This document shows positions 11,888-48,300 of a DNA stretch of 64,000 nucleotides, in pieces. The stretch is from assembly GCA_934254675.1 (NCBI GenBank), contig CAKQLP010000002.1, positions 96,596 through 160,595 of the forward strand, written 5' to 3'. The first letter of the stretch is position 1. Each line of letters opens with the position of its first letter. This DNA comes from an uncultured Alphaproteobacteria bacterium. GTDB lineage: Bacteria > Pseudomonadota > Alphaproteobacteria > RF32 > CAG-239. Under the pieces are notes generated by a model. It saw only the letters and a program-made list of their open reading frames with translations. It had not been told where the DNA came from and made no database searches. The position numbers and the translations under genes are program-made.

Positions 11888-11909
11888 TTTGTGTTTTCTT
11901 TGAGATGTA

Positions 11910-11937
11910 AAAGGCGGGATATGACATCCCGCCTTTT
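11910..11937. terminator. bidirectional intrinsic terminator between gyrA and pilin-like gene 1
   Basis: AAAGGCGGGAT / ATCCCGCCTTT hairpin with A-run upstream and T-run downstream. Confidence 0.8.
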
Positions 11938-11949
11938 AATAATGTAAAT

Positions 11950-13041
11950 TTAATCCTTTCTAGGAACTTTAATATCCGCAAGTAAATCAAAACCGACATA
12001 CATTTGTCCGGTGCCAAAGCTATCTGCGGCGGAACTTTCACAGTATTTTGCGGCAGCCGCGGGGGAAACAGGTTTGAAACGCTGTTCTTTTGTTTCTATG
12101 CAATAATATTCTTGATCATCATTTTCATCGCAATTATAATCACCAACATCACTAGCATTAGCATATACAAATAGAACCCAAAATCCTAAAGTAGTTGGGT
12201 CGGCATCTTTTATCACAATTCCTTTCATATCAGCGTTTCGCCAATCATAAGTTAAAAGAGGTACGCATAAATTTTGGGGTACAAGAACACCGATAGATAA
12301 TGCAGAAAAACCACCTTCTTCATATTCTTCAGTGTATCCAAAGGGGTTGATAAGGGTTAAAGGAGAAGATAAACCAATCCTCTTTTCTCCTTCTAATTCA
12401 AAAATGTATTCTTGCGGTAAAAGCCCCATGTCTTGAATTTGATTATCAGCTCCTATTAGCCCTCCATCGAAAACATCATAAGCTTTTTGGCTGATATAAG
12501 CTGTTCGGATAGTGGCAGAAATATCGGAAATCATATTGACAATTTTATTGATATGAATTTTTTCCATGGCTTTAGTATAGCCGGCAATACCGCCAACGCT
12601 CAACACCCCGATGATGGCCAGAACGCCGAGCATTTCAATCATACTTCGCCCAATCGGGTTTGTCTGTCTGGTCACTGCTTGCGCTTTTCTCACTCGTGTA
12701 CCGCTTTGTACACGTCGTTCCAAAAGTGCGGCGCATTGACGCACAACATCCAAGCCCTTAGTGAAATTCTTCCTATTGTCATACTCGGGCTTGTCCCGAG
12801 TATCCACCATCAAGTCCATGTCATATTTAGGCTTAAAACACATCCTTCTCCTATTGTCATACTCGGGCTTGTCCCGAGTATCCATAGGAGTGTGTTCCGT
12901 ATTGATTCTCGGAATAAATCCGAGAATGACGTTTGTAAGGTGTTTTGTATGGATTCTCGGAATAAATCCGAGAATGACATTTAAAGTGTGTCCGAAAATG
13001 ACGGAGAATAGGGTATTCTGTTCATCCTTAAATTTTTTCAA
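11950..13041 (-). CDS. type IV pilin-like paralog 1, out of frame with its upstream SD/ATG at 13142 because of a (CT)7 tract
   Basis: Contains G-RSMIE-MLGVLAIIGVLSVGGIAGY (Gly at -1, Glu at +5, hydrophobic helix), then a divergent Cys-containing domain. The frame is open for 131 codons upstream of the Gly and is built of palindromic modules. Confidence 0.75.
   Translation of the reverse strand: MKKFKDEQNTLFSVIFGHTLNVILGFIPRIHTKHLTNVILGFIPRINTEHTPMDTRDKPEYDNRRRMCFKPKYDMDLMVDTRDKPEYDNRKNFTKGLDVVRQCAALLERRVQSGTRVRKAQAVTRQTNPIGRSMIEMLGVLAIIGVLSVGGIAGYTKAMEKIHINKIVNMISDISATIRTAYISQKAYDVFDGGLIGADNQIQDMGLLPQEYIFELEGEKRIGLSSPLTLINPFGYTEEYEEGGFSALSIGVLVPQNLCVPLLTYDWRNADMKGIVIKDADPTTLGFWVLFVYANASDVGDYNCDENDDQEYYCIETKEQRFKPVSPAAAAKYCESSAADSFGTGQMYVGFDLLADIKVPRKD
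12695..12975. repeat. cluster of 5 palindromic modules inside the leader of pilin-like gene 1
   Basis: CGTGTAC-N6-GTACACG (12695-12714). ATACTCGGG-CTTGT-CCCGAGTAT at 12781-12803 and 12859-12881. ATTCTCGGA-ATAAA-TCCGAGAAT at 12905-12927 and 12953-12975. Confidence 0.9.
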
Positions 13042-13156
13042 AAAGTGGCAAAAACCGCGTGTAGAAGCTTTAAAACGCTCTGAAATCGAATGTTTAGGAT
13101 TTACAGAGAGAGAGAGAGACCTTTTGATTGCTTATTTTTCATCTTTCTTTCCTCTT
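12998..13156 (-). other. conserved 5' expression cassette (SD AAGAGG, ATG 13142, (CT)7 13105-13118), copy 1 of 3
   Basis: About 150 nt nearly identical to 15053-15209 and 31596-31751. Confidence 0.85.
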
Positions 13157-13313
13157 AAATTTGATTAAAATTTAACTCTAATTTTAGAAAAAATATCTTA
13201 AAATAAAGTTAAATGTTACTTAGAATAGAGGAGTGTTTCATATATATAAATACCTTGCTATTTGGATGTATGTTGTTTAAAAATGATGAAAAATGATAAT
13301 TAAAGAGGATTAA

Positions 13314-14045
13314 ATGATTACCCAATTTTCAAGAACGGAATTGTTGATTGGCGCAGAATATGTTGAAAAACTTAAACATTCGCGCGTGGCTGTGTTCGGA
13401 CTTGGCGGCGTCGGCGGCTATGTGGCGGAAGCATTGGCTCGAGTCGGTGTCGGCGCGCTTGATTTAGTGGATAATGACAAGGTGAGTTTGAGCAATATAA
13501 ACAGGCAGATTTTGGCTTTGCATTCAACTATCGGCATGCCTAAAACAGAGGCGGCGAAACAACGTTTATTGGATATAAATCCTGATTTGAAAATTGTTTG
13601 TCATAATTGTTTTTATTTGCCTGAAAACGCTGATGATTTTGATTTTAAGCAATATGATTATGTGGCCGATGCAATTGACACGATTGCCGGAAAAATTGCT
13701 TTAGTACAGCGGGCGACGGAAGCAAATACGCCGATTATTTGCGCCATGGGCGCTGGTAATAAGCTGAATGCCTGTGGTTTTAAAATTGCGGATATCAGTA
13801 AAACGTCCGTGTGTCCGTTAGCAAAGGTAATGCGACGGGAATTACGTAAACGCGGTATAAATCATTTTAAGGCGGTGTATTCAGAAGAACCGGCTTTGAC
13901 CCCGTTAGGTGCGGCGGAAGACAGCAATAAACGGCAAACACCGGGGAGTATATCTTATGTGCCGGCTGTGGCGGGGTTATTGATGGCTGGCGAAATTATC
14001 AAGGATTTATTGACCCAAAATTCAAAAGAAGCGGCTGATTTATAA
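13314..14045 (+). CDS. tcdA: tRNA threonylcarbamoyladenosine dehydratase (ThiF/MoeB-fold, TcdA/CsdL-like)
   Basis: GLGGVGGYVAEALARVGVGALDLVDNDKVSLSNINRQ Rossmann/E1-like motif. 243 aa with overall TcdA layout. Confidence 0.85.
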   Translation: MITQFSRTELLIGAEYVEKLKHSRVAVFGLGGVGGYVAEALARVGVGALDLVDNDKVSLSNINRQILALHSTIGMPKTEAAKQRLLDINPDLKIVCHNCFYLPENADDFDFKQYDYVADAIDTIAGKIALVQRATEANTPIICAMGAGNKLNACGFKIADISKTSVCPLAKVMRRELRKRGINHFKAVYSEEPALTPLGAAEDSNKRQTPGSISYVPAVAGLLMAGEIIKDLLTQNSKEAADL

Positions 14046-14071
14046 AGGAGACATATTAGTTGTTTAGGTTG

Positions 14072-14117
14072 TTCTGCTATGGTGTAAATGTGAATTTAGC
14101 ATAGCAGAATTGTTTTT
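14072..14117 (+). terminator. intrinsic terminator after tcdA
   Basis: TTCTGCTATG / CATAGCAGAA 10-bp stem followed by TTGTTTTT. Confidence 0.7.
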
Positions 14118-14275
14118 ATTCGCCCAGCTGATAATTAGTTCTATTGTTTTAAAATGTAACTTTTGTATAAAGTAAGAAAGTTCTTTTAAATGAATTTATG
14201 GGCATCAGTAAAAAACGGATGCCCATATTTGTATATATAAAATGCCTTATTTATATGTTTCAAGATAATATTTTG

Positions 14276-15094
14276 TTATTTGGGAATATACATTCCAAAT
14301 ATACAATCTCCATCTTCGCAAGTAGAACAAGCTAAAGCTGTATCGGCAGGTGAAAATGGAATTTGTTTAATTTTTGAATTATTCTTAATAATCCAATTAC
14401 AATTAGTAAAATCGGGGGAGCAATAGGCTAAAGAGTTTGTTTCATCTGCAAAGTTTTCTAGCATTACCAATAATGGATTGAATGTTCGCCAATCAGATTG
14501 AGCTAACGCCATGCAGGATTCTTTTGAAGTTAAAAATAAGCCTAGCAAGAAAAAGTTTTCATCCATTGACAGGTTATCTTGAGCATTTCCAATAATAATA
14601 TCATTTCCAAAAGCGTCAAAAGCACTTAGTCTATCAGAGGCAATCATTTCATCAGGAATGATACCCATTTGAATAGCGGTTTCTGTGCTAAGGTTGTTAA
14701 AATCTTTCTGCTGGATGTAAAGTGTTTGGATATTATTTATTATCGTTGAAAATTGAGAAAGGACAGTGTTTGTTTTAAATTTAGTCATGGCTTTTGAGTA
14801 GCCGGCAATACCACCGACGCTCAACACACCGATGATGGCGAGGACGCCTAGCATTTCAATCATACTTCTGCCGCACTGCACGCCATCTGCTAGGAATTTT
14901 TGCGCTCGTGTACCTCTTTTGTACACGTCGCTTAAAAATCCCGTCGCATCTGGTGTACATTGTGGCAGAAGGTTGTTATTGTCATACTCGGGCGTGACCC
15001 GAGTATCCACAGAAGAGTGTTCCGCATGGATTCTCGGAATAAATCCGAGAATGACGGAGAATAGGGTATTCCGTTCCGACTCAAATTTTTTCAA
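14276..15094 (-). CDS. type IV pilin-like paralog 2, out of frame with its upstream SD/ATG at 15195 because of a (CT)7 tract
   Basis: QCG-RSMIEMLGVLAIIGVLSVGGIAGY motif and a divergent Cys-rich C-terminal domain. The leader carries palindromic modules. Confidence 0.75.
   Translation of the reverse strand: MKKFESERNTLFSVILGFIPRIHAEHSSVDTRVTPEYDNNNLLPQCTPDATGFLSDVYKRGTRAQKFLADGVQCGRSMIEMLGVLAIIGVLSVGGIAGYSKAMTKFKTNTVLSQFSTIINNIQTLYIQQKDFNNLSTETAIQMGIIPDEMIASDRLSAFDAFGNDIIIGNAQDNLSMDENFFLLGLFLTSKESCMALAQSDWRTFNPLLVMLENFADETNSLAYCSPDFTNCNWIIKNNSKIKQIPFSPADTALACSTCEDGDCIFGMYIPK
14907..15052. repeat. 3 palindromic modules in the leader of pilin-like gene 2
   Basis: CGTGTAC-N7-GTACACG (14907-14927), ATACTCGGG-CGTGA-CCCGAGTAT (14984-15006), ATTCTCGGA-ATAAA-TCCGAGAAT (15030-15052). 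Confidence 0.9.
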
Positions 15095-15209
15095 AAAGTG
15101 GCAAAAACCGCGTGTAGAAGCTTTAAAACGCCCTGAAATCGAATGTTTAGGATTTACAGAGAGAGAGAGAGGCCTTTGCTAAGCTTATTTTTCATCTTTC
15201 TTTCCTCTT
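15053..15209 (-). other. conserved 5' expression cassette (SD 15204-15209, ATG 15195, (CT)7 15158-15171), copy 2 of 3
   Basis: Nearly identical to 12998-13156 and 31596-31751. Confidence 0.85.
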
Positions 15210-15443
15210 AAAATAAATTGAAACTCTATTAAGTATTGTCAAAAATAGTAAAAATATATTTAAGATATATGTATGTAAAAATATTTCTTGCATAATAGAC
15301 GAAAACAACATACAATAAAGTCGTATTAAATAAGTATTATGGAAAAAATTATGGCAATTATCTGTGCTGTTTTCAAATCTTTCTAAGGAAGAAATGTCCA
15401 TTATGCTTATATTGAATGTTTAACTCCTTAATTTTTTCAAGAT

Positions 15444-21340: not shown

Positions 21341-21775
21341 ATGAAATATTTATTAATGGTTTGTTTGTTATTTCCTCTGTCGGCGCAGGCATTTTGTTTG
21401 GGTGAGGTTGGCAGTCAGCGTACAAATGGATTGGGCGAAACCGAATATAGAAACAGCAGCGGACAATTGCTGGGAACATCCCGCCAGAACGGATTGGGTG
21501 AGACCGAATATCGCGACAACAGCGGTCAATTGGTCGGCACGGCCAGACAGAACGGATTGGGCGAGACCGAATATCGGGACAACAGCGGACGATTGTCCGG
21601 AACTTCTCGCCAAAATGGATTGGGAGATACCGAATATCGAAATGGTAACGGCGTGTTAGTTGGAACCTCTCGCGAAAACAGTCTTGGAGATACCGAATAT
21701 CGTGACAACACCGGCAGACTAAATAAAACATCTCATCAAAACGGATTGGGTGAGACAATTTATTATAATTACTAG
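21341..21775 (+). CDS. secreted tandem-repeat protein
   Basis: Signal peptide MKYLLMVCLLFPLSAQA, then five and a half copies of the 21-aa unit NGLGETEYR(D/N)xSGxLxGTxRQ. Confidence 0.75.
   Translation: MKYLLMVCLLFPLSAQAFCLGEVGSQRTNGLGETEYRNSSGQLLGTSRQNGLGETEYRDNSGQLVGTARQNGLGETEYRDNSGRLSGTSRQNGLGDTEYRNGNGVLVGTSRENSLGDTEYRDNTGRLNKTSHQNGLGETIYYNY
21425..21772 (+). repeat. 63-nt in-frame tandem repeat, about 5.5 copies
   Basis: Period of 21 codons read from the translation (N29, N50, N71, N92, N113, N134). Confidence 0.9.
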
Positions 21776-21787
21776 GAGAATCGTTTT

Positions 21788-30482: not shown

Positions 30483-30518
30483 AAAAAGAGTCCCATGTTA
30501 CGGCATGGGACTCTTTTT
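30483..30518. terminator. bidirectional terminator between tig and pilin-like gene 3
   Basis: AAAAAGAGTCCCATG / CATGGGACTCTTTTT 15-bp stem. Confidence 0.85.
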
Positions 30519-31737
30519 AAGAAATAAAGTATAAAATTAAATCACAATTTTCAGTTGTGCAGCTTTTACAAAACTGGGTCATTTTTATCGGTGTCATGTT
30601 TTTAAAGCAGGTTTGTCGAGAGTCGGTACAATAGATTTTACCCCAAATAATAACATCAGTCGTATAATTGTTTTTTAATTCCAATCTAGAAATATTACCG
30701 TTTTCAGCATCAAAGGCTGTGATAGCTTTTATAATGTTTTTGCATTGATTTTCAGAACTTATGGCAAAAGCGTTATTTATGGTTTTAAGACTGATTCCCA
30801 AATAAAATGAGGTACTGTTACAAGGGGATAAAGAACCATCTGGTTGTCGGCATGTGTCAACACCATAAGATAAAATAAATTTATTTCCAAATCGATCCTG
30901 AGCAGTCTCATTAGAGATAAGCTTCATGTCGTCAGGTAAATATCCAAGAGCATTGATAGCGCCCATAAGGTCGTTTATTCTGATTGTTGATTGGTTACGG
31001 TAGTCTTGTTTGAAAGTGTCACGAAGTTCTAATATATGATAAATAAGGGAATTGATTTGTTCAAGTTGTTTGTGTGATTGATAAGTTTCCATGGCTTTGC
31101 TGAATCCCTGAATACCTCCGACGGATAGCACCCCAATAATGGTGAGAACGCCCAGCATTTCAATCATGCTTCGCCCAAGGGAAAACTCGTTTAGCTGGTG
31201 TCTGCTTGAAATTTTCGCGCTCGTGTACCTCTTTTGTACACGTCGCTTAAAAATTCCGGCGCATTCACGCACGCTATCCAAGTTTTCAAGTAAGATGTTA
31301 GGATTTTTTTCGCAGCTAGAAACCTCTTTATCTACACCACTCTCCGCGGTTTCAATACATTCATTTGTCTGTCTGGTCACTGCTTGCGCTTTTCTCACTC
31401 GTGTACTACTTTGTACACGTCGTTCCAAAATTGCGGCGCATTGACGCACGACATCCAAGCCCTTGATAAGACTCTGTTCTCTGTCATACTCGGGCTTGAC
31501 CCGAGTATCCAAAGAATAGTGTTTTGTATAGATTCTCGGAATAAATCCGAGAATGACGTTTAAAAATTGGTTAACATTTAAGGTGTGATTGAGAATGACG
31601 GAGAATAGGGTATTCCGTTCATCCTTAAATTTTTCCCAAAAGTGGCGAAAACCATGTGTAGAAGCTTTAAAACGCTCTGAAATCAAATGTTTAGGATTTA
31701 CAGAGAGAGAGAGACCTTTTGATTGCTTATTTTTCAT
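30517..31737 (-). CDS. type IV pilin-like paralog 3, intact and in frame from the cassette ATG ((CT)6), with a 188-codon leader
   Basis: MKNKQSKGLSLSVNPKH... runs through palindromic modules to LG-RSMIEMLGVLTIIGVLSVGGIQGF, then a divergent Cys-rich domain. SD AAGAGG lies 8 nt before the ATG. Confidence 0.8.
   Translation of the reverse strand: MKNKQSKGLSLSVNPKHLISERFKASTHGFRHFWEKFKDERNTLFSVILNHTLNVNQFLNVILGFIPRIYTKHYSLDTRVKPEYDREQSLIKGLDVVRQCAAILERRVQSSTRVRKAQAVTRQTNECIETAESGVDKEVSSCEKNPNILLENLDSVRECAGIFKRRVQKRYTSAKISSRHQLNEFSLGRSMIEMLGVLTIIGVLSVGGIQGFSKAMETYQSHKQLEQINSLIYHILELRDTFKQDYRNQSTIRINDLMGAINALGYLPDDMKLISNETAQDRFGNKFILSYGVDTCRQPDGSLSPCNSTSFYLGISLKTINNAFAISSENQCKNIIKAITAFDAENGNISRLELKNNYTTDVIIWGKIYCTDSRQTCFKNMTPIKMTQFCKSCTTENCDLILYFIS
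31222..31554. repeat. 4 palindromic modules in the leader of pilin-like gene 3
   Basis: CGTGTAC-N7-GTACACG (31222-31242), CGTGTAC-N6-GTACACG (31400-31419), ATACTCGGG-CTTGA-CCCGAGTAT (31486-31508), ATTCTCGGA-ATAAA-TCCGAGAAT (31532-31554). Confidence 0.9.
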
Positions 31738-39412: not shown

Positions 39413-39632
39413 CTAGATAAAGGAGGCTTTATCTAGGGCGTCGAAAACCCTTTCAAATAATAACTAGTCGCTTTTGAGCATAAGCGACTTTAAATAGTTT
39501 ATGCCGACTTCTGTTCTGTTGGACGGATGTCGGCTGAATAAGGCTATATGCTGAATAAGCCGAGCTGTTTTATATTTAGTTATTATTTGAACGGTTTTCG
39601 AACATCCGCCCGCTTAAAGCGGGTTTTGTTTT
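39413..39632 (+). ncRNA. unclassified hairpin-rich leader or sRNA ending in an intrinsic terminator, directly upstream of pilin-like gene 4
   Basis: Perfect hairpins CTAGATAAAG-GAGG-CTTTATCTAG (39413-39436) and AGTCGCTT-N8-AAGCGACT (39466-39489), plus GCCGAC...GTCGGC (39503-39534). Direct repeat CTGAATAAG x2. Terminator CCCGC-TTAAA-GCGGG followed by TTTTGTTTT (39609-39632). Confidence 0.5.
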
Positions 39633-39658
39633 GTATAACAATAAACGGAGTTGGAAAC

Positions 39659-40468
39659 ATGTTCAATAATTTGAAAAGAAAAATAATGTTTTGCTTAGAT
39701 AAAGTCATTTTCGGCTTTATTCCGAGAATCCACTTGAAACATCATGCTTTATGCTGTCATTATCGGGCTTGTCCCGATAATCTAGATCCTCGGGTCAAGC
39801 CCGAGGATGACAAGAGGTTGGTCAAGCCCGAGGATGACTATAAAATAGCGCAGTGCGGTCGTTCTATGATTGAAATGCTGGGTGTGCTCGCCATTATCGG
39901 TGTCCTGTCCGTCGGAGGTATTGCCGGTTATTCCAGCGCCATGGAAAAATGGAAATTAAATGAAACATTGGTTGGGTATAATCATTTGATGTACGGTCTT
40001 TTAGAGTATGAGGTTTCTTTAAGAACTTTGGAATCCGGCAGTGGATATTATTTATTAGAAGATGTTATTTCCAGCTTAAATCTATTGCCGGAAAATTGGA
40101 AAAATACTGGCGGCTTTATATATGATCCTGCGGGAAACCGCTTTCGCCCGTTTATTCGTCATAACCGTTTTGTTTTTGATGTATATATAGGAAATACGAA
40201 AAAAGTTGAAGATAAAAGAGTTCAAGATGCGTTTTCATATAAAATGTGCTTAAACCTTATGAGTAACTTGCTCAAACCGATGCATAATCTGATTTATATG
40301 ACAGGTATTTATAGAGACAGCGGTTATAATAAATATCTGTATGGGGATTCATCTTGTGATAATGAAGGACAAAAATGCTTGAGCGACGCAACATTGTCTG
40401 ATATGCAAAATATATGTAACTCTTGTGTGCTGAATGAAGAGTTTTGCATATTCCTTATAGAATTCTAA
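39659..40468 (+). CDS. type IV pilin-like paralog 4 (67-codon leader, no CT tract)
   Basis: GGAG lies 8 nt before ATG 39659. QCG-RSMIEMLGVLAIIGVLSVGGIAGY motif and a divergent Cys-containing C-terminal domain. The track ORF start at 39548 runs through the leader terminator and is rejected. Confidence 0.8.
   Translation: MFNNLKRKIMFCLDKVIFGFIPRIHLKHHALCCHYRACPDNLDPRVKPEDDKRLVKPEDDYKIAQCGRSMIEMLGVLAIIGVLSVGGIAGYSSAMEKWKLNETLVGYNHLMYGLLEYEVSLRTLESGSGYYLLEDVISSLNLLPENWKNTGGFIYDPAGNRFRPFIRHNRFVFDVYIGNTKKVEDKRVQDAFSYKMCLNLMSNLLKPMHNLIYMTGIYRDSGYNKYLYGDSSCDNEGQKCLSDATLSDMQNICNSCVLNEEFCIFLIEF
39707..39838. repeat. palindromic modules in the leader of pilin-like gene 4
   Basis: Degenerate ATTTTCGGC-TTTAT-TCCGAGAAT (39707-39729), ATTATCGGG-CTTGT-CCCGATAAT (39759-39781), ATCCTCGGG-TCAAG-CCCGAGGAT (39786-39808), half copy GTCAAGCCCGAGGATGAC (39820-39838). 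Confidence 0.9.
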
Positions 40469-41096: not shown

Positions 41097-42896
41097 GTGC
41101 GTATGCGGAAAATTCTGATTTTTTTTAGTGCTTTATTGTGGTGCGGCGCGGCTATGGCTGTGGAAAGTCCGGCGTATGATGTGTCGTGGCTGAAGTTGTT
41201 GCATTATCATAAAACGCTTAACGGTTACCAGGGTTTAGTGGAAAATCAGGAATTTTATATAAGTTCGGACGGGCGAAACAATCCGCAAGCGGAATTTGCG
41301 GCAGAAATAGAAGCTTTTTCTAAAGGTGAAGAAAAGTGCCGCTTTCCGGCAAGATTTAACTATCTGAAACAGCTAAAAAAAGTGCAGGGTGATTTAAGCG
41401 GGTGCAAGGATTATCAGCAATTTATGCACGACGTGCGTCCGAATGGTATCACGATTTTGTTTACCAACGCGTATATGAGCAATCCGGCTTCGTTGTTTGG
41501 GCATACGTTGGTGCGTATAGACACAGCGCGCAAGGGAACGCAAATGTTGGCGCATGGCTCAAATTTTGGAGCGGATTCCGGAACGGAATATGGCGTGATG
41601 TTTGCGCTCAAAGGTTTGTTCGGCGGATATCTTGGGGTATATAGCGTCAGCCCATATTGGGAAATAATAAACACTTATAATAATATTGAAAATAGAGATA
41701 TTTGGGAATACAATCTTAATTTAACAGATGAAGAAAAACAGAAATTTGTTGACCATCTGTATGAAATGCGTCAAGCCAAAATCCGCTATTATTTTTTGAG
41801 TAAAAATTGCTCGTATATGATTTTGGAGTTGCTGGAGGCGGTGCGTCCGAGTTTAGAGCTGACTAAGCAATATCCGGCGTGGGTGATTCCGTTGGATACG
41901 CTAAAAACCATTAATAATGAGCCGAATTTGGTTAAGTCGCAAAACTATCGTCCGGCGCGTTATACGCAGATTCAAAAATTGTTAAAGGCAATGAATAATG
42001 CGCAATATCAGGCGTTTTTACACGGTGTAGAAGAACATGATTTTACGGCGGAAAATCTGACTGATGACGAAAAATCAGAAGTTTATGAAGCAGTTTATCA
42101 GTATTTTCAATATGAATACACCGCCGGAAACATGCCGCTGAAAGATTATCGAAAAGCCAGTTTCGGCGTGTTGCGTAAACGCAGTGCCCTGCCGATTGTT
42201 GAAAAAGCTAAGCCGGTTGGGGAAAATCCGGCCTTATCGCATGATTCTATGCAAATATCATTCAGCGGCGGAGCAGAACGCCACAAAAGTTTTGAAGAAG
42301 TTGAAATTCGTCCCGCTTATACCGCTTTAACCGACAGTAGTTTCGGGTTGGTTAAAGGGGCGGAAATCAGCGTGATGTCCAGCAAATGGCGGTATTATAA
42401 TCAATCTCACAAAACTGTTTTGCAAAATTTTGCACCGATAAAAATTAAATCATTAGTGCCGGCGGGCAGGGTGTTTAATCCGATTTCCTATGCGGTCGGT
42501 GCGGAAATTAAACGCGACTATAATCCGCAGAATTATGATGAAGGTTATATTGGTTACGGCTATGGCGGAGTGGGTAAAACCATTGTTTTGCCGGCAGATA
42601 TTTGGCTTTATAGTTTGTTGAAAATCAATGGTGCGTACGGCGGTTTTATTCCGCATAACAGTTGGGGCGGATTGGCTCCGGAAATCGGCGTTTTGAAAGA
42701 TTTTGGCGTGGTGCGGCTGCATTTTAACGCCGAAAAAACTTGGGCAACCCGCAAATTTGGCGACAGATTGGTTTACAAAGCCGCCGCGGCGTTGGGTTTG
42801 ACCGATAATTTGTCACTGGAAATCGGCTATGAAGGCAGTCATAACATCGGCCGAAACAGCGAAAGCTGGCAACTTTGGCTACGAAAAAGTTTTTAG
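41097..42896 (+). CDS. DUF4105 (Lnb N-terminal periplasmic domain) family protein
   Basis: Signal peptide (MRKILIFFSALLWCGAAMA) and the SLFGHTLVRI motif typical of DUF4105. Probable start ATG 41103. Confidence 0.65.
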   Translation: MRMRKILIFFSALLWCGAAMAVESPAYDVSWLKLLHYHKTLNGYQGLVENQEFYISSDGRNNPQAEFAAEIEAFSKGEEKCRFPARFNYLKQLKKVQGDLSGCKDYQQFMHDVRPNGITILFTNAYMSNPASLFGHTLVRIDTARKGTQMLAHGSNFGADSGTEYGVMFALKGLFGGYLGVYSVSPYWEIINTYNNIENRDIWEYNLNLTDEEKQKFVDHLYEMRQAKIRYYFLSKNCSYMILELLEAVRPSLELTKQYPAWVIPLDTLKTINNEPNLVKSQNYRPARYTQIQKLLKAMNNAQYQAFLHGVEEHDFTAENLTDDEKSEVYEAVYQYFQYEYTAGNMPLKDYRKASFGVLRKRSALPIVEKAKPVGENPALSHDSMQISFSGGAERHKSFEEVEIRPAYTALTDSSFGLVKGAEISVMSSKWRYYNQSHKTVLQNFAPIKIKSLVPAGRVFNPISYAVGAEIKRDYNPQNYDEGYIGYGYGGVGKTIVLPADIWLYSLLKINGAYGGFIPHNSWGGLAPEIGVLKDFGVVRLHFNAEKTWATRKFGDRLVYKAAAALGLTDNLSLEIGYEGSHNIGRNSESWQLWLRKSF

Positions 42897-42965: not shown

Positions 42966-43145
42966 ATGCTTATAGCTTTCATTCTTAACCATACTTTAAA
43001 TGTCATTATCGGGCTTGTCCCGATAATCTGGATCCTCGAGTCAAACCCGAGGATGACAATAGGAAGAGGATGTGCGCCATACCCGAGGATGACAATATTA
43101 AAGGGGCATGTGTTAAGTCCGAGGATGACGAGAGTAGTGATGTAA
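42966..43145 (+). pseudogene. orphan pilin-leader remnant: palindromic-module cluster without a pilin body
   Basis: 59-codon ORF MLIAFILNHTLNVI... matches the leader segment SVILNHTLNV of locus 3. Modules are ATTATCGGG-CTTGT-CCCGATAAT (43005-43027), ATCCTCGAG-TCAAA-CCCGAGGAT (43032-43054), and two half copies ending GAGGATGAC. No GRSMIEM helix follows. Confidence 0.6.
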
Positions 43146-43226: not shown

Positions 43227-45308
43227 TTACCCAGCTGAATAAGTCTTTATAGCCTCATCACGTTCAAAAAGATACATTAAAGTGCGGAGGGCAGTGCCAC
43301 GCGTGGTTGACAAGTTTTTGTCCTGATTGAGAATTAATGCGGCATCTTTGGCGGCAGTTAAAAGCAAGTCGCCGTGCACACTTAAATCTGCCACTTTAAA
43401 GCTACTGAAACCGGATTGCCGCGTTCCTAAAACTTCTCCGCCACCGCGTAGTTTCAAATCTTCTTCAGCAATTAAAAAGCCGTTTTCGGTTTGTTTCATA
43501 ATATTCAGGCGAGAGCGTGAAACTTCGCTAAGCGGATAGCCATACATCAAAATACAGCTCGAGGCTTCAAAACCGCGCTTAATGCGACCGCGCAGTTGGT
43601 GCAGTTGCGCCAGTCCAAAGCGTTGGGCGTGTTCAATAATCATAATGGTGGCGTTTGGCACATTTACACCGACTTCTATCACGGTGGTGGAAACCAAAAG
43701 CTTTAATTTACCGCTCTTAAATTGTTCCATAACCGCGTTCTTTTCACTTTCTTTCATCTTTCCATGCACCAAGCCAACCATATTGCCAAATTCCTGACGT
43801 AAGCTTTCATAGCGTTCTTTGGCGGCGGAAAGGTCAATTTTTTCCGACTCTTCCACCAGCGGACAAACCCAATAAGCCTGTGTTTGAGTTTGCAATTTGC
43901 GTTTCAGGGCGTCAATCACTTCGTGAATTTTACTAAGCGGCATAACCGTGGTGGTGACAGGTTTGCGTCCGGCCGGAAGTTCATCTATTTGCGAATAGTC
44001 CATATCTCCGAATTGGGTTAAGACTAAAGTTCTCGGTATCGGTGTGGCGGTCATCACTAAGACATCACAAGATTTACCTTTTTGCGAAAGGCTAAGGCGT
44101 TGTTTGACCCCGAAACGATGTTGTTCGTCAACCACAGCGTAGGCTAAATCTTTGAAAGTCACATCTTCCGTAAACAAAGCGTGAGTGCCGATTAAAATAT
44201 CTATTTCACCATTTTGCAAAGCGTCTAAAATTTGTTGGCGAGATTTTCCCTTAATATTGCCGGTCAGCAATGCTGTTTTTACACCGATTTGCGAACATAA
44301 ATCGGCAATGGTTTCATAGTGCTGTTGGGCTAAAATTTCAGTTGGAGCCATAATGGCCGCTTGCGCGCCGCATTCAACGGCGTTAAGCATTGTATAAAGT
44401 GCGACAATGGTTTTGCCGGAACCGACATCTCCCTGTAACAAGCGTAACATTCTGTATTCGGAAAACATATCGCTTTCAATTTCGGCTATAACTCGTTGTT
44501 GAGCCGAGGTTAATTGAAAAGGCAGAATTTTCGCCAAGCGTTTTTTTAAATGTCCGTCGCCTTGCAAGGCTCGTCCTTTTTGATGTTTCAAACGTTCACG
44601 CACAATGGCGAGTGAAAGCTGATTGGCCAACAGTTCATCATAAGCCAAACGGCGGCGCGCGGTTGAATTTGGCGATAAATCGTCCAAAGTTTGAGGGTGA
44701 TGAACTTGCTCTAAGGCTTTGTTGAAGCTTGGAAAATTCTGTTGCTTCAAAAACTCGGGGTTCAGCCATTCGTTCAGCGGCGGTGTCAAGCCTAGAGCTT
44801 GCGTCATCAGCTTGTTCAGCATTTTGTTGGTAACGCCGGCGGTCAGCGGATATACGGTTTCTATTTGCGGCATTTGCAGAGGTTTGGCGGCGTCCACCAC
44901 ATAGTCGGGGTGCGGCATTTGCCAGCTGTTGTTAAAGCGTTCCAACTTACCGGAAATAATTTTTTCGGCACCAACCGGAAAAATGCGAGTCAGCGTGTCG
45001 CCGTAAGTTTTGAAAAAAATCAAAATCAGTTGCTCTGTACCATCGTCAACGGCAATGCGATAGGGCTGTTTGCGGGTTTGCGGCGCTTTATGCTCTATAA
45101 CGCGCACTTTACCCGTCCAAATATGTCCTTCAACGGCGGAAATTAAAGGCAGATTACAGCGGCGGTCGATTATTCCCGATGGTAAATGCCACAGCAAATC
45201 AACCACGCGTTCACCGCATAAATTCGCCACAAGTTTGGCATATTTATCTCCCACACCGTTTAGGGTGGTGATAGGGGCAAAAAGCGGATATAAAATGGTC
45301 GGTCGCAT
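43227..45308 (-). CDS. recG: ATP-dependent DNA helicase RecG
   Basis: 693 aa from ATG 45308 (MRPTILYPLF...). Wedge domain, Walker A GDVGSGKT, DEQHRFG, TATPIPRT, QLHQLRGR. The track ORF extension to 45845 overlaps mfd and is rejected. Confidence 0.95.
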   Translation of the reverse strand: MRPTILYPLFAPITTLNGVGDKYAKLVANLCGERVVDLLWHLPSGIIDRRCNLPLISAVEGHIWTGKVRVIEHKAPQTRKQPYRIAVDDGTEQLILIFFKTYGDTLTRIFPVGAEKIISGKLERFNNSWQMPHPDYVVDAAKPLQMPQIETVYPLTAGVTNKMLNKLMTQALGLTPPLNEWLNPEFLKQQNFPSFNKALEQVHHPQTLDDLSPNSTARRRLAYDELLANQLSLAIVRERLKHQKGRALQGDGHLKKRLAKILPFQLTSAQQRVIAEIESDMFSEYRMLRLLQGDVGSGKTIVALYTMLNAVECGAQAAIMAPTEILAQQHYETIADLCSQIGVKTALLTGNIKGKSRQQILDALQNGEIDILIGTHALFTEDVTFKDLAYAVVDEQHRFGVKQRLSLSQKGKSCDVLVMTATPIPRTLVLTQFGDMDYSQIDELPAGRKPVTTTVMPLSKIHEVIDALKRKLQTQTQAYWVCPLVEESEKIDLSAAKERYESLRQEFGNMVGLVHGKMKESEKNAVMEQFKSGKLKLLVSTTVIEVGVNVPNATIMIIEHAQRFGLAQLHQLRGRIKRGFEASSCILMYGYPLSEVSRSRLNIMKQTENGFLIAEEDLKLRGGGEVLGTRQSGFSSFKVADLSVHGDLLLTAAKDAALILNQDKNLSTTRGTALRTLMYLFERDEAIKTYSAG

Positions 45309-45383
45309 TGTGAATTTGTCTTTTTTTTGTTGCGTTAATGGCTGTATTGTATATATTTTATAACAAAATGTAAACAGGAAAGC

Positions 45384-48300
45384 GTGATTATGCGTAAAGA
45401 TGTGAATGTTTGGGCGGGGAAGACTGTTTCTTCGGTTGCCGATGGTTATGAATCCTTTGTTTTGGCGCAGATTGCCAATGCGAAAAAGCCGGTTATTTAT
45501 ATTGCAAGCGACGGCGTGAGTTTGGCGCAAACGGCGACAATGTTGCGTTTTTTGCATCCGGAATATGAAGTTTTGGAATTTCCGGCTTGGGATACGGTGC
45601 CTTATGACCGTGTTTCGCCAAACAGCGCGCTTTCGGCCAAGCGTATTGAAACTTTGGCGAAAATTGTCTTTTATGACGGAAAAACGCCTTTGGTCGTGGT
45701 TACCTCGGTTGGGGCCGTGTTGCAAAAACTTGCGCCGGCAAAAATTTTTCGCAACGCCCGCAAATTGGTGAAAGTTGGCGAAAAATTGGATTTTGACAGC
45801 TTTTTGCACTATGTTTCGTTGAATGGATATACTCGGGTGGAACAAGTTATGGAGCCTGGGGAATACGCCGTGCGGGGTGATATTACCGATATTTTTCCGA
45901 GCGGCATGGAAAATCCTTTGCGGATTGATTTGTTTGATGATGAGGTGGAACGATTACGGATTTTTGACGCGGTGAGCCAACGCACTATCGGAGACTTGCA
46001 ACAATATGAATTTCAGGTGGCAAGCGAAGTGCTTTTAGACGCCAACACCATTCGCAATTTCCGTGAACAATATCGAGAGCTTTTTGGGGCCGATGGTTTG
46101 CACGATGAAATATATGAGGCGATTTCCAACGGGCAAAAATATATCGGTATGGAAAATTGGTTGCCGTTGTTTTATAACGATGTTTTGCCGACCTTGTTTG
46201 ATTATTTGCCGAACGCGCAAGTCGTGGCGGGGAAAAATATTGAAGAGTCCTTAAAAGCTAAAACAGAGGGGATTGCCGATTATTACGAAGCTCGTTTAGA
46301 GGCGTTGCAAGTTAAGGGAAAACAGGAAACAGATGCTTATAGGCCGTTGCCTCCGAAAAAACTTTATATGTCGGCAGATGAATTTACAGCCAAGTTGGAA
46401 GACAGACAAGCCGTATATTTTACTCCATTGACGATTGCCGCAAATGATAAAGTTGTGGAACTGAAAACCATTCCGGGGCGAGATTTTGTTCACGCCCGAC
46501 ATATCAGCAACGCCGCTGTTTATGAAGAGTTGCGCGATTATTTGACGGAAAACGGAAAACTTAAAAGAATTGTTTGTTGTTATACCGAGGGTTCGCGAGA
46601 ACGTTTGCGTTCACTGATGACGGATTACGATATTAAAAACACGGCGTTGGTCGATACATGGACAGAAGCTTTACGGGCTTGCGCACAAAAGAAAATTGCT
46701 CTGGTTATGGTTGAGTTGGCGCACGGCTTTAGAGATGATGAATATTGTTTGATATCCGAACAAGATATTTTGGGTGAAAGACAACATCGCAAGGCTAAAA
46801 AAGTTTCTTCCAAAGATTTTATCGCCGATGTGTCGGCTTTGAGCGTGGGCGAATTGGTGGTGCATATTGAGCATGGTATCGGGCGTTTTTTGGGACTGGA
46901 AAATATTATGGCCGGCGGTGCGCCACACGATTGTTTGAAAATTGTGTATGCTCACGATGATAAGCTTTTTGTGCCGGTTGAAAATATTGACGTTATTTCC
47001 CGCTATGGCTCCGATGATGAAAACGTGCAGCTTGATGTGTTGGGCGGGGCGGCTTGGCAAGCTAAAAAAGCTAAAGTAAAGGCAAAAATCAAAGATATTG
47101 CCGAAAAATTGATAAAAATCGCCGCCGAAAGACATCTTAAAACTGCCGATGTGTTTATGGCTCCAAGCGGGGCGTATGATGAATTTTGCGCTAAGTTTCC
47201 ATATAGCGAAACCGACGATCAATTGCACGCCATAAAAGATGTTATTCAAGATTTGAGCGCGGGCGAGCCGATGGACAGACTGGTTTGCGGAGACGTGGGG
47301 TTTGGCAAAACCGAAGTGGCTTTGCGCGCGGCGTTTACCGTGGCAATGTCCGGAGCGCAAGTGGCCTTGATTGTGCCAACGACTTTGCTGGCTCGTCAAC
47401 ATTATTTGAATTTTGTCGAGCGAATGAAGGGGTTTCCAATCCGTGTGCGGATGTTGTCCCGTTTAAGCACGCCGAAAGAAGTACGCGAAACCAAACAGGG
47501 ATTGGCCGAAGGTTCGGTGGAAATTGTGATTGGCACGCACGCCCTGTTGTCCAAAGATGTGCAGTTTTGCAATTTAGGCTTGCTTATTGTGGACGAAGAA
47601 CAGCATTTCGGCGTGGCGCATAAAGAAAAAATTAAGGCGTTGAAATCTGATGTGCATGTTTTAACTTTGAGTGCGACGCCAATTCCGCGGACATTGCAAC
47701 TTTCTCTGACTGGCGTTAAACAACTCAGTATTATAGCCACGCCACCCGTTGATAGACTGGCCGCCCGCACTTTTGTGATGCCTTTTGATAAAGTGATGAT
47801 AAAAGAGGCCATTTACCGAGAAAAATTCCGTGGCGGACAAACGTTTTTTGTGTGCCCGAGAGTGTCGGATATTGCCGATATTTTGGAAACTTTGCAAAAT
47901 TTGGTGCCGGATATCAAAATTGCGGTGGCGCACGGACAAATGCCGGCTAAGCAACTTGAAGACATTATGTGCGATTTTGCCGACGGCAAATACGATGTTT
48001 TACTTTCGACCACCATTATTGAGTCCGGTATTGATATGCCGCGCGTAAACACAATGATTATTCACCGCGCCGATATGTTTGGTTTGGCACAACTTTATCA
48101 ATTGCGCGGACGAGTAGGGCGTTCAAAGGTGCGTGGATATTGCTATTTTACGGTTCCGGCGCGTAAAAAGCTTAATCCGGTGGCAGAAAAACGTTTGAGT
48201 ATTTTGCAGGCTCTGGATACGCTTGGCGCGGGTTTTTCTTTGGCTAGTCACGATTTGGATATCCGCGGTTCAGGCAATGTGTTGGGAACAGAGCAGTCCG

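Follow-up and report, generated by a model that had tools for sequence, protein, structure and literature searches.

A 64,000-nucleotide (nt) stretch of contig CAKQLP010000002.1 (assembly GCA_934254675.1) from an uncultured Alphaproteobacteria bacterium, called the window in the following, contains four paralogous pilin-like genes with long upstream leader regions. The motif ATGATHGARATG was found four times in the window, at 12631 (-), 14852 (-), 31156 (-), and 39866 (+), compared with a chance expectation of 0.11. The copies are located in open reading frames (ORFs) at 11950-13041 (-), 14276-15094 (-), 30517-31737 (-), and 39548-40468 (+), which are designated loci 1-4. All four paralogs encode G-R-S-M-I-E-M-L-G-V-L-A/T-I-I-G-V-L-S-V-G-G, and the motif search bore out an earlier reading of the sequence alone, which had described four paralogs with a common G-R-S-M-I-E-M-L-G-V-L motif. 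All four genes show the layout of a class III signal, i.e., a Gly at -1, a Glu at +5, and about 20 hydrophobic residues (helix hydrophobicity KD19 = 2.1-2.2). The leader ORFs comprise 66-187 codons from the best starts and are thus longer than the 6-30 residues of class III signal peptides. The genes are single and stand amid housekeeping genes (gyrA, a thiF-like gene, a glycosyltransferase gene, thrS, and tig), and they are numerous, with 4 copies in the 64-kb window and at least 10 in related metagenome-assembled genomes (MAGs). In our preferred interpretation, to which we assign a probability of about 70%, they encode phase-variable, dispersed type IVb pilins behind giant leaders that are translated and then cleaved off.

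The identity of the proteins was analyzed at the levels of sequence, fold, and genomic context. In Pfam, locus 2 matched the Bundlin family (PF05307; 5e-10, 40.2 bits, threshold 22.3) and also touched PilS_N, and loci 1, 3, and 4 had no single-sequence match to Bundlin or PilS. The TIGR02532 score of locus 2 was 16.3, precisely at the cut-off of 16.3, followed by locus 4 with 15.7 and loci 1 and 3 with 10-12. The PF07963 scores of the window genes (8.7-14.3) stayed below the cut-off of 21.2; the Arg at +1, which is a trait of the whole family, and the Ser at +2 deviate from the GFxxxE consensus. A family profile built from 72 members, with locus 1 as first row, matched the solved structures of BfpA (1zwt, E 1.8e-16), TcpA (3.5e-3), and PilS (0.1). 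A homologue search yielded more than 7,700 proteins, nearly all from metagenome assemblies; most of the 120 homologues listed carry PF05307/PF08805, and most of these 120 also have a leader ORF of well over 40 residues. The contigs with relatives are nearly all from MAGs of uncultured gut Alphaproteobacteria. The AlphaFold2 model of locus 2 had a predicted local distance difference test value (pLDDT) of 84.8 and a predicted template modeling score (pTM) of 0.80. In Foldseek, it matched TcpA, PilS of S. Typhi, the type IVb pilus of enterotoxigenic E. coli (ETEC), and CofA with probabilities of 0.98-1.0 and template modeling scores (TM) of 0.45-0.63 (TcpA 8uhf, E 1.7e-4, TM 0.54; PilS 3fhu, TM 0.50/0.63; 9iuf; CofA), i.e., it has a type IVb pilin fold. 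A Cys pair is conserved in the family, and the globular domain is highly variable. The nucleotide diversity of the pilin N-terminus was 0.14/0.10/0.53 at the three codon positions, and the N-terminus is therefore under strong purifying selection. The pilin-like identity proposed in the sequence-only reading was thus supported by the Bundlin match, the profile match to BfpA, the fold of locus 2, and the occurrence of relatives in type IVb pilus (T4bP) operons. Taken together, there is little doubt that the family consists of genuine type IVb pilins.

Altogether, 163 pilin N-termini were collected, and for 152 of them an upstream stop codon was present inside the fetched DNA. Roughly half of the 152 have just 7-35 open codons in the pilin frame, and the other half, which includes all four window genes, has 50-312. 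A Shine-Dalgarno (SD) motif with an ATG 6-11 codons before the Gly was found in 62 of 74 short-leader genes, resulting in leaders of 7-12 residues. One example has AGGAG..ATG, with M-K-N-I-Y-K-N-E-Q-S-G before and R-S-M-V-E-M after the predicted cleavage site. The SD motifs at these starts are strong, with a median of -7.3. Throughout the family, the G-R-S tripeptide is encoded with 4 Gly, 6 Arg, and 6 Ser codons, which are all synonymous codons there are. Given the strong SD-ATG 6-11 codons upstream in the relatives, G-R-S belongs to the translated region, and a leader of normal size ends with Gly-1. At loci 1-4 the codons are GGG CGA AGT, GGC AGA AGT, GGG CGA AGC, and GGT CGT TCT, exactly as listed before, and this synonymous variation holds family-wide, but as evidence of translation it covers only the stretch immediately before the helix. 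Initiation at the Met of RSMIEM was ruled out by the all-synonymous G-R-S codons together with the SD-ATG 6-11 codons before the Gly.

The short-leader relatives were associated with T4bP assembly genes at 11 loci, and T4bP operons with pilins were found in several related species. In L017, the gene order is T2SSE, T2SSF, four Bundlin/PilS pilins, and a second T2SSE. In the full operon of L142-L145 (1-15750), which belongs to a related human-gut species, a 591-aa protein, TcpQ, secretin, PilO, a 481-aa protein, T2SSE, T2SSF, two pilins, and T2SSE follow each other, and this operon adjoins genes of a conjugative type IV secretion system (TrbC, VirB4/TrbE). The ATPase family turned out to be highly conserved over more than 2,400 proteins. 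One MAG (L009) contains separate short-leader pilins in addition to long-leader ones. At a further short-leader locus with two tandem copies (L049, 3921-4002), a 20-codon upstream ORF (uORF; MKTKQCLSLSLQILHLGELK, followed by a stop codon) contains (CT)7, and L053 is similar. The L049 uORF ends in a TGA that shares bases with the canonical pilin ATG (ATGA); a strong AGGAG lies directly before it, and the (CU)n tract could pair with this SD.

In the window, the open stretch of the pilin frame before the Gly comprises 160, 102, 191, and 105 codons at loci 1-4, and the two other frames close within 3-36 codons. At locus 1, the 480 nt (160 codons) upstream of Gly-1 contain no stop codon in frame 0 and 6 and 12 stop codons in frames 1 and 2. 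The values of 164, 108, 188, and 67 codons in the sequence-only reading are the distances to the distal ATGs and as such correct. For a family-wide analysis, 88 metagenome contigs with the conserved string AGGAAAGAAAGATGAAAAATAAG and the genome loci were used, which yielded 52 loci where the 5′ element is followed by a pilin. This element includes a (CT)n tract, and in 51 of the 52 loci the number of nt between the tract end and the Gly is divisible by three, with 38 different values between 159 and 909 nt. Over 20,029 nt of leader, 3 stop codons were found in the pilin frame, in contrast to 355 and 562 in the other two frames. All three are located in one aberrant locus (L084), the leader length of which is not a multiple of three. 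In 50 of the 52 loci, the pilin frame can be followed without a stop codon as far as the tract; the exceptions are L084 and L137, where the nearest pilin is in another frame, and both may be decaying copies or rearrangements. Thus, many independent indels have occurred that were all frame-preserving, which is hard to explain unless the ribosomes read through the leader into the pilin. The earlier claim that the long leaders are translated is supported by the multiple-of-three lengths and by the scarcity of stop codons in the pilin frame only, and judging from these comparisons it is nearly certain that the reading frame of the long leaders is maintained. Long open frames by chance or due to stop-poor repeats were ruled out by the frame comparison and the multiple-of-three rule.

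The amino acid sequence of the leaders showed a different picture. The nucleotide diversity is equal across the codon positions (0.22/0.24/0.23), and a 64-nt module present at 14886-14949 and at 31201-31264 (92% identity) yields LSDVYKRGTRAQKF at locus 2 and KRRVQKRYTSAKIS at locus 3, since the two loci use it in different frames. Given the equal diversity at the codon positions and the use of one module in two frames, the leader peptide is unconstrained and would act as a translated spacer. The leaders have a net positive charge (+9 per 100 aa), and 70 of 80 lack a transmembrane-like segment. All 83 long-leader genes have Gly-1, Arg/Lys+1, and Ser+2, and positions -2 to -7 vary. Including the short-leader genes, Gly-1 was present in 162 of 162 genes (83 long-leader, 79 short-leader), and the search motif had not required it. 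The net charge, the few transmembrane-like segments, and the invariant Gly-1 with variable positions -2 to -7 fit a cytoplasmic, cleaved leader, and cleavage at the Gly is probable on the basis of these sequence features. The sequence-only reading had also considered unprocessed bitopic N-in membrane proteins with a cytoplasmic N-terminal domain, in which the pilin helix is reused as an anchor. Such a topology would be compatible with the data, and no peptidase was found in the window, at the long-leader loci, or within 10 kb around the relative's operon. Nevertheless, this alternative is very improbable, because Gly-1 is invariant in all 83 long-leader genes, as is Glu+5, and because a leader that has no amino acid constraint and shares one module in two frames is not a domain; in addition, the relatives with 7-12-residue leaders sit in T4bP operons.

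The leader modules are hairpins, e.g., TCTCGGATTTATTCCGAGA, ACTCGGGACAAGCCCGAGT, and CGTGTAC-N7-GTACACG. The module sets differ among clades and include typical units like those of repetitive extragenic palindromic (REP) elements ('LLRRYTPRND'). Some stems carry a compensatory substitution (ATaCTCGGG..CCCGAGtAT vs ATtCTCGGG..CCCGAGaAT), and the predicted RNA fold of the locus 1 leader had a z value of -5.97 against shuffled sequences, compared with -0.73 for the 3′ part of the same gene. Over all DNA sampled, 18 hairpins were found in leaders (35 kb) and 4 outside (1.04 Mb), an about 130-fold difference in a sample that is biased to pilin loci. Modules at the 5′ ends are common to different window paralogs. 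Within the window, hairpin modules are confined to the four leaders and one spacer at 43001-43113, which is flanked by the 3′ ends of 41097-42896 (+) and the recG-like 43227-45845 (-) and includes an SD-ATG-like unit, 'GACAATAGGAAGAGGATGTG'. An Rfam search over the whole window revealed one tRNA only and no known RNA family in the leaders. One antisense frame across the leaders is also poor in stop codons; the antisense ORFs at 12487-12984 (+), 12761-13168 (+), 14832-15182 (+), and 31139-31444 (+) are mirror images of the palindromic modules and are not genes, though gene callers may report them.

The hairpin modules between two convergent genes, the stop-poor antisense frame, and the lack of amino acid constraint in the leader would all fit the explanation that the upstream region is an untranslated 5′-UTR (5′-untranslated region) or an intergenic REP array. 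The pilins would then have an ordinary short leader with a proximal, possibly non-ATG start, and the open frames would be a by-product of stop-poor palindromes. A proximal start with a good SD is in fact present in 23 of 77 long-leader genes. However, the lengths of 51 of 52 leaders are multiples of three over 38 values, the frames differ in their stop codons (3 vs 355 and 562), and the lineage otherwise uses strong SD motifs, as seen at the short-leader starts (median -7.3). Moreover, 54 of the 77 long-leader genes have no good-SD start within 30 codons of the Gly, and at locus 3, the 31 codons before the Gly contain no ATG, GTG, or TTG. Therefore, we regard an untranslated upstream region as improbable.

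The 5′ ends of loci 1-3 have the common structure AAGAGG-N8-ATG AAA AAT AAG N12 (CT)n G(T/C)A AAT CC, i.e., the ATG is followed by 21 nt and then the tract, which is read as (Leu-Ser)n. A 23-nt SD-ATG-AAAAATAAG string is exactly conserved in the 88 metagenome contigs. The SD-ATG context of locus 3 has a duplex free energy (dG) of -6.0. Locus 3, with (CT)6, has the sole uninterrupted ORF (406 codons) from the SD-ATG among loci 1-3. At loci 1 and 2, both with (CT)7, the ATG frame stops after 13 codons. Thus, one of the three tract-bearing window loci is in the ON length, and the doubt raised before whether locus 1 is in frame was justified, but the distal ATG of locus 2 turned out to be out of frame as well. 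Over 74 tracts, n = 6 was found in 6, n = 7 in 52, and n = 8 in 16 cases. With n = 6 the ATG is in the pilin frame (5/5; ORFs of 268-406 codons), with n = 7 it is in the +2 frame (38/39; ORFs of 13 or 18 codons), and with n = 8 it is in the +1 frame (7/8; ORF of 16 codons). The in-frame homologues contain (LS)1 to (LS)4, which corresponds to (CT)3, 6, 9, and 12.

The tract length is polymorphic. Two loci from different samples, L065 with n = 7 and L095 with n = 8, share 99.6% identity in the 900 nt downstream and 100% in the 250 nt upstream. Mixed lengths also occur inside single samples (n = 6 in 1 and n = 7 in 13 tracts; n = 6 in 4 and n = 7 in 7; n = 7 in 4 and n = 8 in 7). The co-assembly SAMEA3663093 is dominated by n = 8. 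The 3.4 kb at 11900-15300 of the window are 100% identical to scaffold_9 of ENA ERZ28615496 (322,705 bp, SAMEA4765572). Three contigs identical to the window, which were fetched via the ThiF neighbor, all had n = 7 and were therefore uninformative on switching, and a look-up via the Tig neighbor found no orthologous contigs. In the CAYOYE lineage, the upstream sequence is a different one and the ATG-(CT)7 design is kept. Locus 4 and its homologues (MYKNFLC... or MFNNLKRK...) have an SD-ATG only and no tract, and locus 4 has a hairpin leader of 66 codons. The related 5′ type in other clades has leaders of about 31 residues with a single REP unit, which look like an intermediate stage. Many contigs of the metagenome loci (L054-L141) terminate no more than a few tens of bases from the conserved SD-ATG-(CT)n element; short-read assemblies break at these multicopy 5′ ends, and the numbers of paralogs in MAGs are probably underestimated. 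From the pattern of frames and lengths, it seems likely that (CT)n acts as an ON/OFF switch of the slipped-strand contingency type. Such a switch at the far 5′ end would explain the need for the whole leader to stay in frame.

A different role of the tract would follow if the long leader were translated from an in-frame start downstream of it. In that case, (CT)n would be part of a small regulatory uORF, acting by translational coupling or as an anti-SD, without any frame switch. Candidate starts are the TTG of ..HF-L-KKFESERN and an SD+ATG inside the 'DNRRR-M-CFKPE' module. The claim that good SD motifs lie solely at the distal ATGs is nearly correct, but locus 1 also has an internal in-frame SD+ATG (dG -7.3), which is located inside a repeat module 64 codons before the Gly. 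This site, the dominance of (CT)7, and the (CT)7 uORF of L049 that is coupled by the ATGA overlap to the canonical pilin start are in line with downstream initiation, and gene callers often choose such starts. On the other hand, the pilin frame is open right to the tract in 50 of 52 loci, the TTG candidates have a weak SD (-2.9), SD-ATG-AAAAATAAG is exactly conserved in divergent clades, and window loci 1-3 have no start near the uORF stop. A downstream start as the general rule is thus unlikely. Internal initiation may occur in some genes, and the window leaders would even so be at least 44 residues long.

The search for the pilus machinery gave negative results for the vicinity of the long-leader genes. 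The sequence-only reading had stated that no pilus genes are in the window, and a partial check agreed: no T2SSE Walker-A motif was found in any frame, and the 20 ORFs scanned are housekeeping genes.

According to the comparison of the genes, the ancestral type had a leader of 7-12 residues and a strong SD. In this lineage, hairpin repeats accumulated after the start and before Gly-1, and only frame-keeping, stop-free copies survived. The resulting gene consists of its own SD-ATG, eight codons, (CT)n, a leader of about 60-315 codons of in-frame REP-like modules, the invariant Gly at which cleavage is predicted, the near-invariant helix R-S-M-I-E-M-L-G-V-L-A-I-I-G-V-L-S-V-G-G, and the variable globular domain. 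In the proposed mechanism, slipped-strand mispairing would alter n, of which the polymorphism is observed and the switching is deduced. With n = 6, the full prepilin would be made, and with n = 7 or 8, translation would abort after 13-18 codons. As the frame is set by n at each locus, each pilin would be switched independently and a minority would be ON per genome. The leader would stay in the cytoplasm and then be removed by the prepilin peptidase; because it would be cut off, its sequence would be irrelevant and its openness alone would matter. The ON pilins would presumably be assembled by a T4bP machine of the kind present in the relatives, leading to variable pilus surfaces in the gut.

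That most loci are out of frame with their own ATG could also mean that most copies are silent or decaying cassettes, which, as in the case of Neisseria pilS, pass on sequence by recombination to a pilin locus that is expressed. The 5′ modules common to paralogs suggest recombination, and one MAG (L009) has separate short-leader pilins. However, no copy has lost the SD-ATG or any part of the class III signal, all have an intact ORF, purifying selection on the N-terminus is strong, and silent cassettes would have no need for frame maintenance over the leader. This is the least probable of the explanations considered, with a chance that we regard as minimal. A variant of the phase-variable pilin reading holds that the hairpin-packed leader is a working part of a new pilus variation system and not merely tolerated junk, which we consider doubtful. 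The common in-frame modules would then serve as recombination substrate, by which an ON 5′ end (SD-ATG-(CT)6) could be moved among dozens of pilin genes. The untranslated hairpin array might block internal initiation or trigger termination, giving a tight OFF state with no leak. In addition, slippage of the ribosome or RNA polymerase by +/-2 nt on (CU)n might allow a tunable low expression from (CT)7, because a dinucleotide repeat keeps the codon-anticodon pairing and a +/-2 slip thus restores the frame.

Several observations weigh against switchable, cleaved pilins with giant leaders. The OFF length (CT)7 is dominant (52 of 74 tracts), n = 5, 9, and 10 are absent among the 74 tracts, and the spread of tract lengths is narrower than a free-running contingency tract would give. 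The tract lengths were taken from short-read consensus assemblies. At L049, the tract may have had, or may still have, a role in translational coupling or as an anti-SD, which is perhaps ancestral. Translation from the distal ATG and cleavage at the Gly were deduced from the sequence, and 23 of the 77 long-leader genes have a proximal good-SD start. No prepilin peptidase or type IV pilus machinery was found in the window, in the partial check, or beside any long-leader locus, and the 10 kb flanking the T4bP operon of a related species (L142-L145) on each side contained no Peptidase_A24 gene. The operons fetched are from other samples, and neither a T4bP operon nor a prepilin peptidase could be linked to the genome of the window. 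Lastly, AlphaFold2 produced a poor model for locus 1 (pLDDT 54), to which Foldseek assigned no fold match.

The features of the four loci are compiled in Table 1. Consensus scans for promoters and terminators around locus 1 were uninformative. Independent of the pilin genes, a 144-aa ORF with a signal-peptide-like start is present at 21341-21775 (+). It encodes five tandem repeats of 21 residues (NGLGETEYRDNSGQLVGTSRQ), corresponding to a 63-nt DNA period at 21424-21777, and has no Pfam match.

Table 1. Positions of the pilin genes and associated elements in the window
Feature	Position	Strand	Comment
Locus 1, Shine-Dalgarno AAGAGG of the distal start	13151..13156	-	read directly
Locus 1, distal ATG (MKNKQSKG...)	13140..13142	-	pilin frame is +2 relative to the ATG; ATG frame ends after 13 codons
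Locus 1, (CT)7 tract	13105..13118	-	proposed slipped-strand switch, OFF length
Locus 1, leader segment, 151 codons	12652..13104	-	open in pilin frame; REP-like hairpin modules, repeat families D2-D5
Locus 1, Gly(-1)	12649..12651	-	predicted prepilin peptidase cleavage site
Locus 1, RSMIEMLGVLAIIGVLSVGGIAGY	12577..12648	-	Arg+1, Glu+5, hydrophobic alpha1-N helix
Locus 1, mature type IVb pilin, 232 aa + stop	11950..12648	-	in profile matching BfpA; Cys pair C129, C204
Predicted mature pilin N-terminus			RSMIEMLGVLAIIGVLSVGGIAGYTK
Locus 1, terminator-like hairpin GGCGGGAT-N-ATCCCGCC, then TTTT	11909..11933	-	read directly; not called by consensus scan
Locus 2, whole	14276..15195	-	SD-ATG (15193-15195), (CT)7 (15158-15171, OFF), leader, Gly-1 (14870-14872), pilin
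Locus 3, whole	30517..31737	-	406-codon ORF: SD-ATG, (CT)6 (31702-31713, ON), 187-codon leader, Gly-1 (31174-31176), pilin
Locus 4, whole	39659..40468	+	SD-ATG MFNNLKRK..., 66-codon hairpin leader, Gly-1 (39857-39859), pilin; no CT tract
Hairpin-module cluster outside leaders	43001..43113		between two convergent genes; repeat families D6, D8, I4-I7

Class III signal peptides are defined partly by a leader of 6-30 residues, and here a large natural family keeps a leader of 60-315 codons translatable. If true, the prepilin peptidase would have to act on leaders ten times as long as the known ones, and both this enzyme and targeting via the signal recognition particle and Sec would accept more than has been thought. 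Predictors of the PilFind type and gene callers would mis-annotate these genes. The family would also be a natural example of selfish or REP-like repeats that accumulate in a discarded part of a protein, with selection on the reading frame alone. Dozens of independently switchable pilins in an abundant uncultured alphaproteobacterium of the human and animal gut would be relevant for colonization and for the evasion of immunoglobulin A and phages.

The leaders of the S. sanguinis pilins are reportedly 18 residues long. They have been called 'very long' (PMC10191384), and the range given for pilin leaders is 6-26 residues, with about 15-30 for type IVb pilins (PMC4471445). A literature search revealed no account of this pilin family, nor of any pilin with a leader exceeding about 30 residues. 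What is new is presumably the combination, undescribed in the literature searched, of a giant and presumably cleaved leader, the sequence of which is indifferent, with a putative switch at its far end, in dozens of dispersed pilin genes. The nearest relatives of the encoded proteins are the type IVb major pilins BfpA of enteropathogenic E. coli, TcpA of V. cholerae, PilS of S. Typhi and R64, and CofA/LngA of ETEC, with which they share a homologous globular domain, Gly-1, Glu+5, a residue other than Phe at +1, and the conserved Cys pair. The short-leader relatives resemble them also in their clustered T4bP operons (TcpQ, secretin, PilO, two T2SSE, T2SSF). In contrast to the known leaders of about 6-30 residues, those described here have 60-315 codons, the +1 residue is Arg, and the genes, of which there are many copies, are scattered between housekeeping genes outside of an operon and bear tracts.

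Pyrimidine repeats as switches are known from other surface proteins. The opa genes of Neisseria carry the contingency repeat (CTCTT)n. In H. pylori oipA, CT repeats are located in the region of the signal peptide (PMC10564699). Like the (CT)n of oipA, sabA, and hopZ and the repeat of opa, the tract of the pilin genes lies just after the start and only some lengths are in frame, and in each case the members of a multi-copy surface family are, or in the pilins would be, switched independently. However, the H. pylori and opa proteins are outer-membrane proteins with a class I signal peptide and have the repeat a few codons from the mature protein, whereas the putative pilin switch is located 53-303 codons upstream of a class III cleavage site.

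The in-frame modules resemble the Rickettsia palindromic elements (RPEs), which Ogata et al. in 2000 are said to have described as selfish palindromic repeats inserted in frame in protein-coding genes. In both cases, short hairpin-forming palindromes are tolerated in ORFs without stop codons or frameshifts. In contrast to RPEs, which are single, occur in many unrelated genes, and are kept in the mature protein, many modules are stacked in the pilin leaders in one segment that is predicted to be cleaved off. Lastly, the pilE/pilS system of Neisseria also comprises many variable pilin copies with a conserved N-terminus, which presumably vary the pilus surface. Having neither a promoter nor the coding part of the N-terminus, the pilS copies take effect through gene conversion into a single expression site, whereas each of the pilin genes described here is complete and has its own putative switch.

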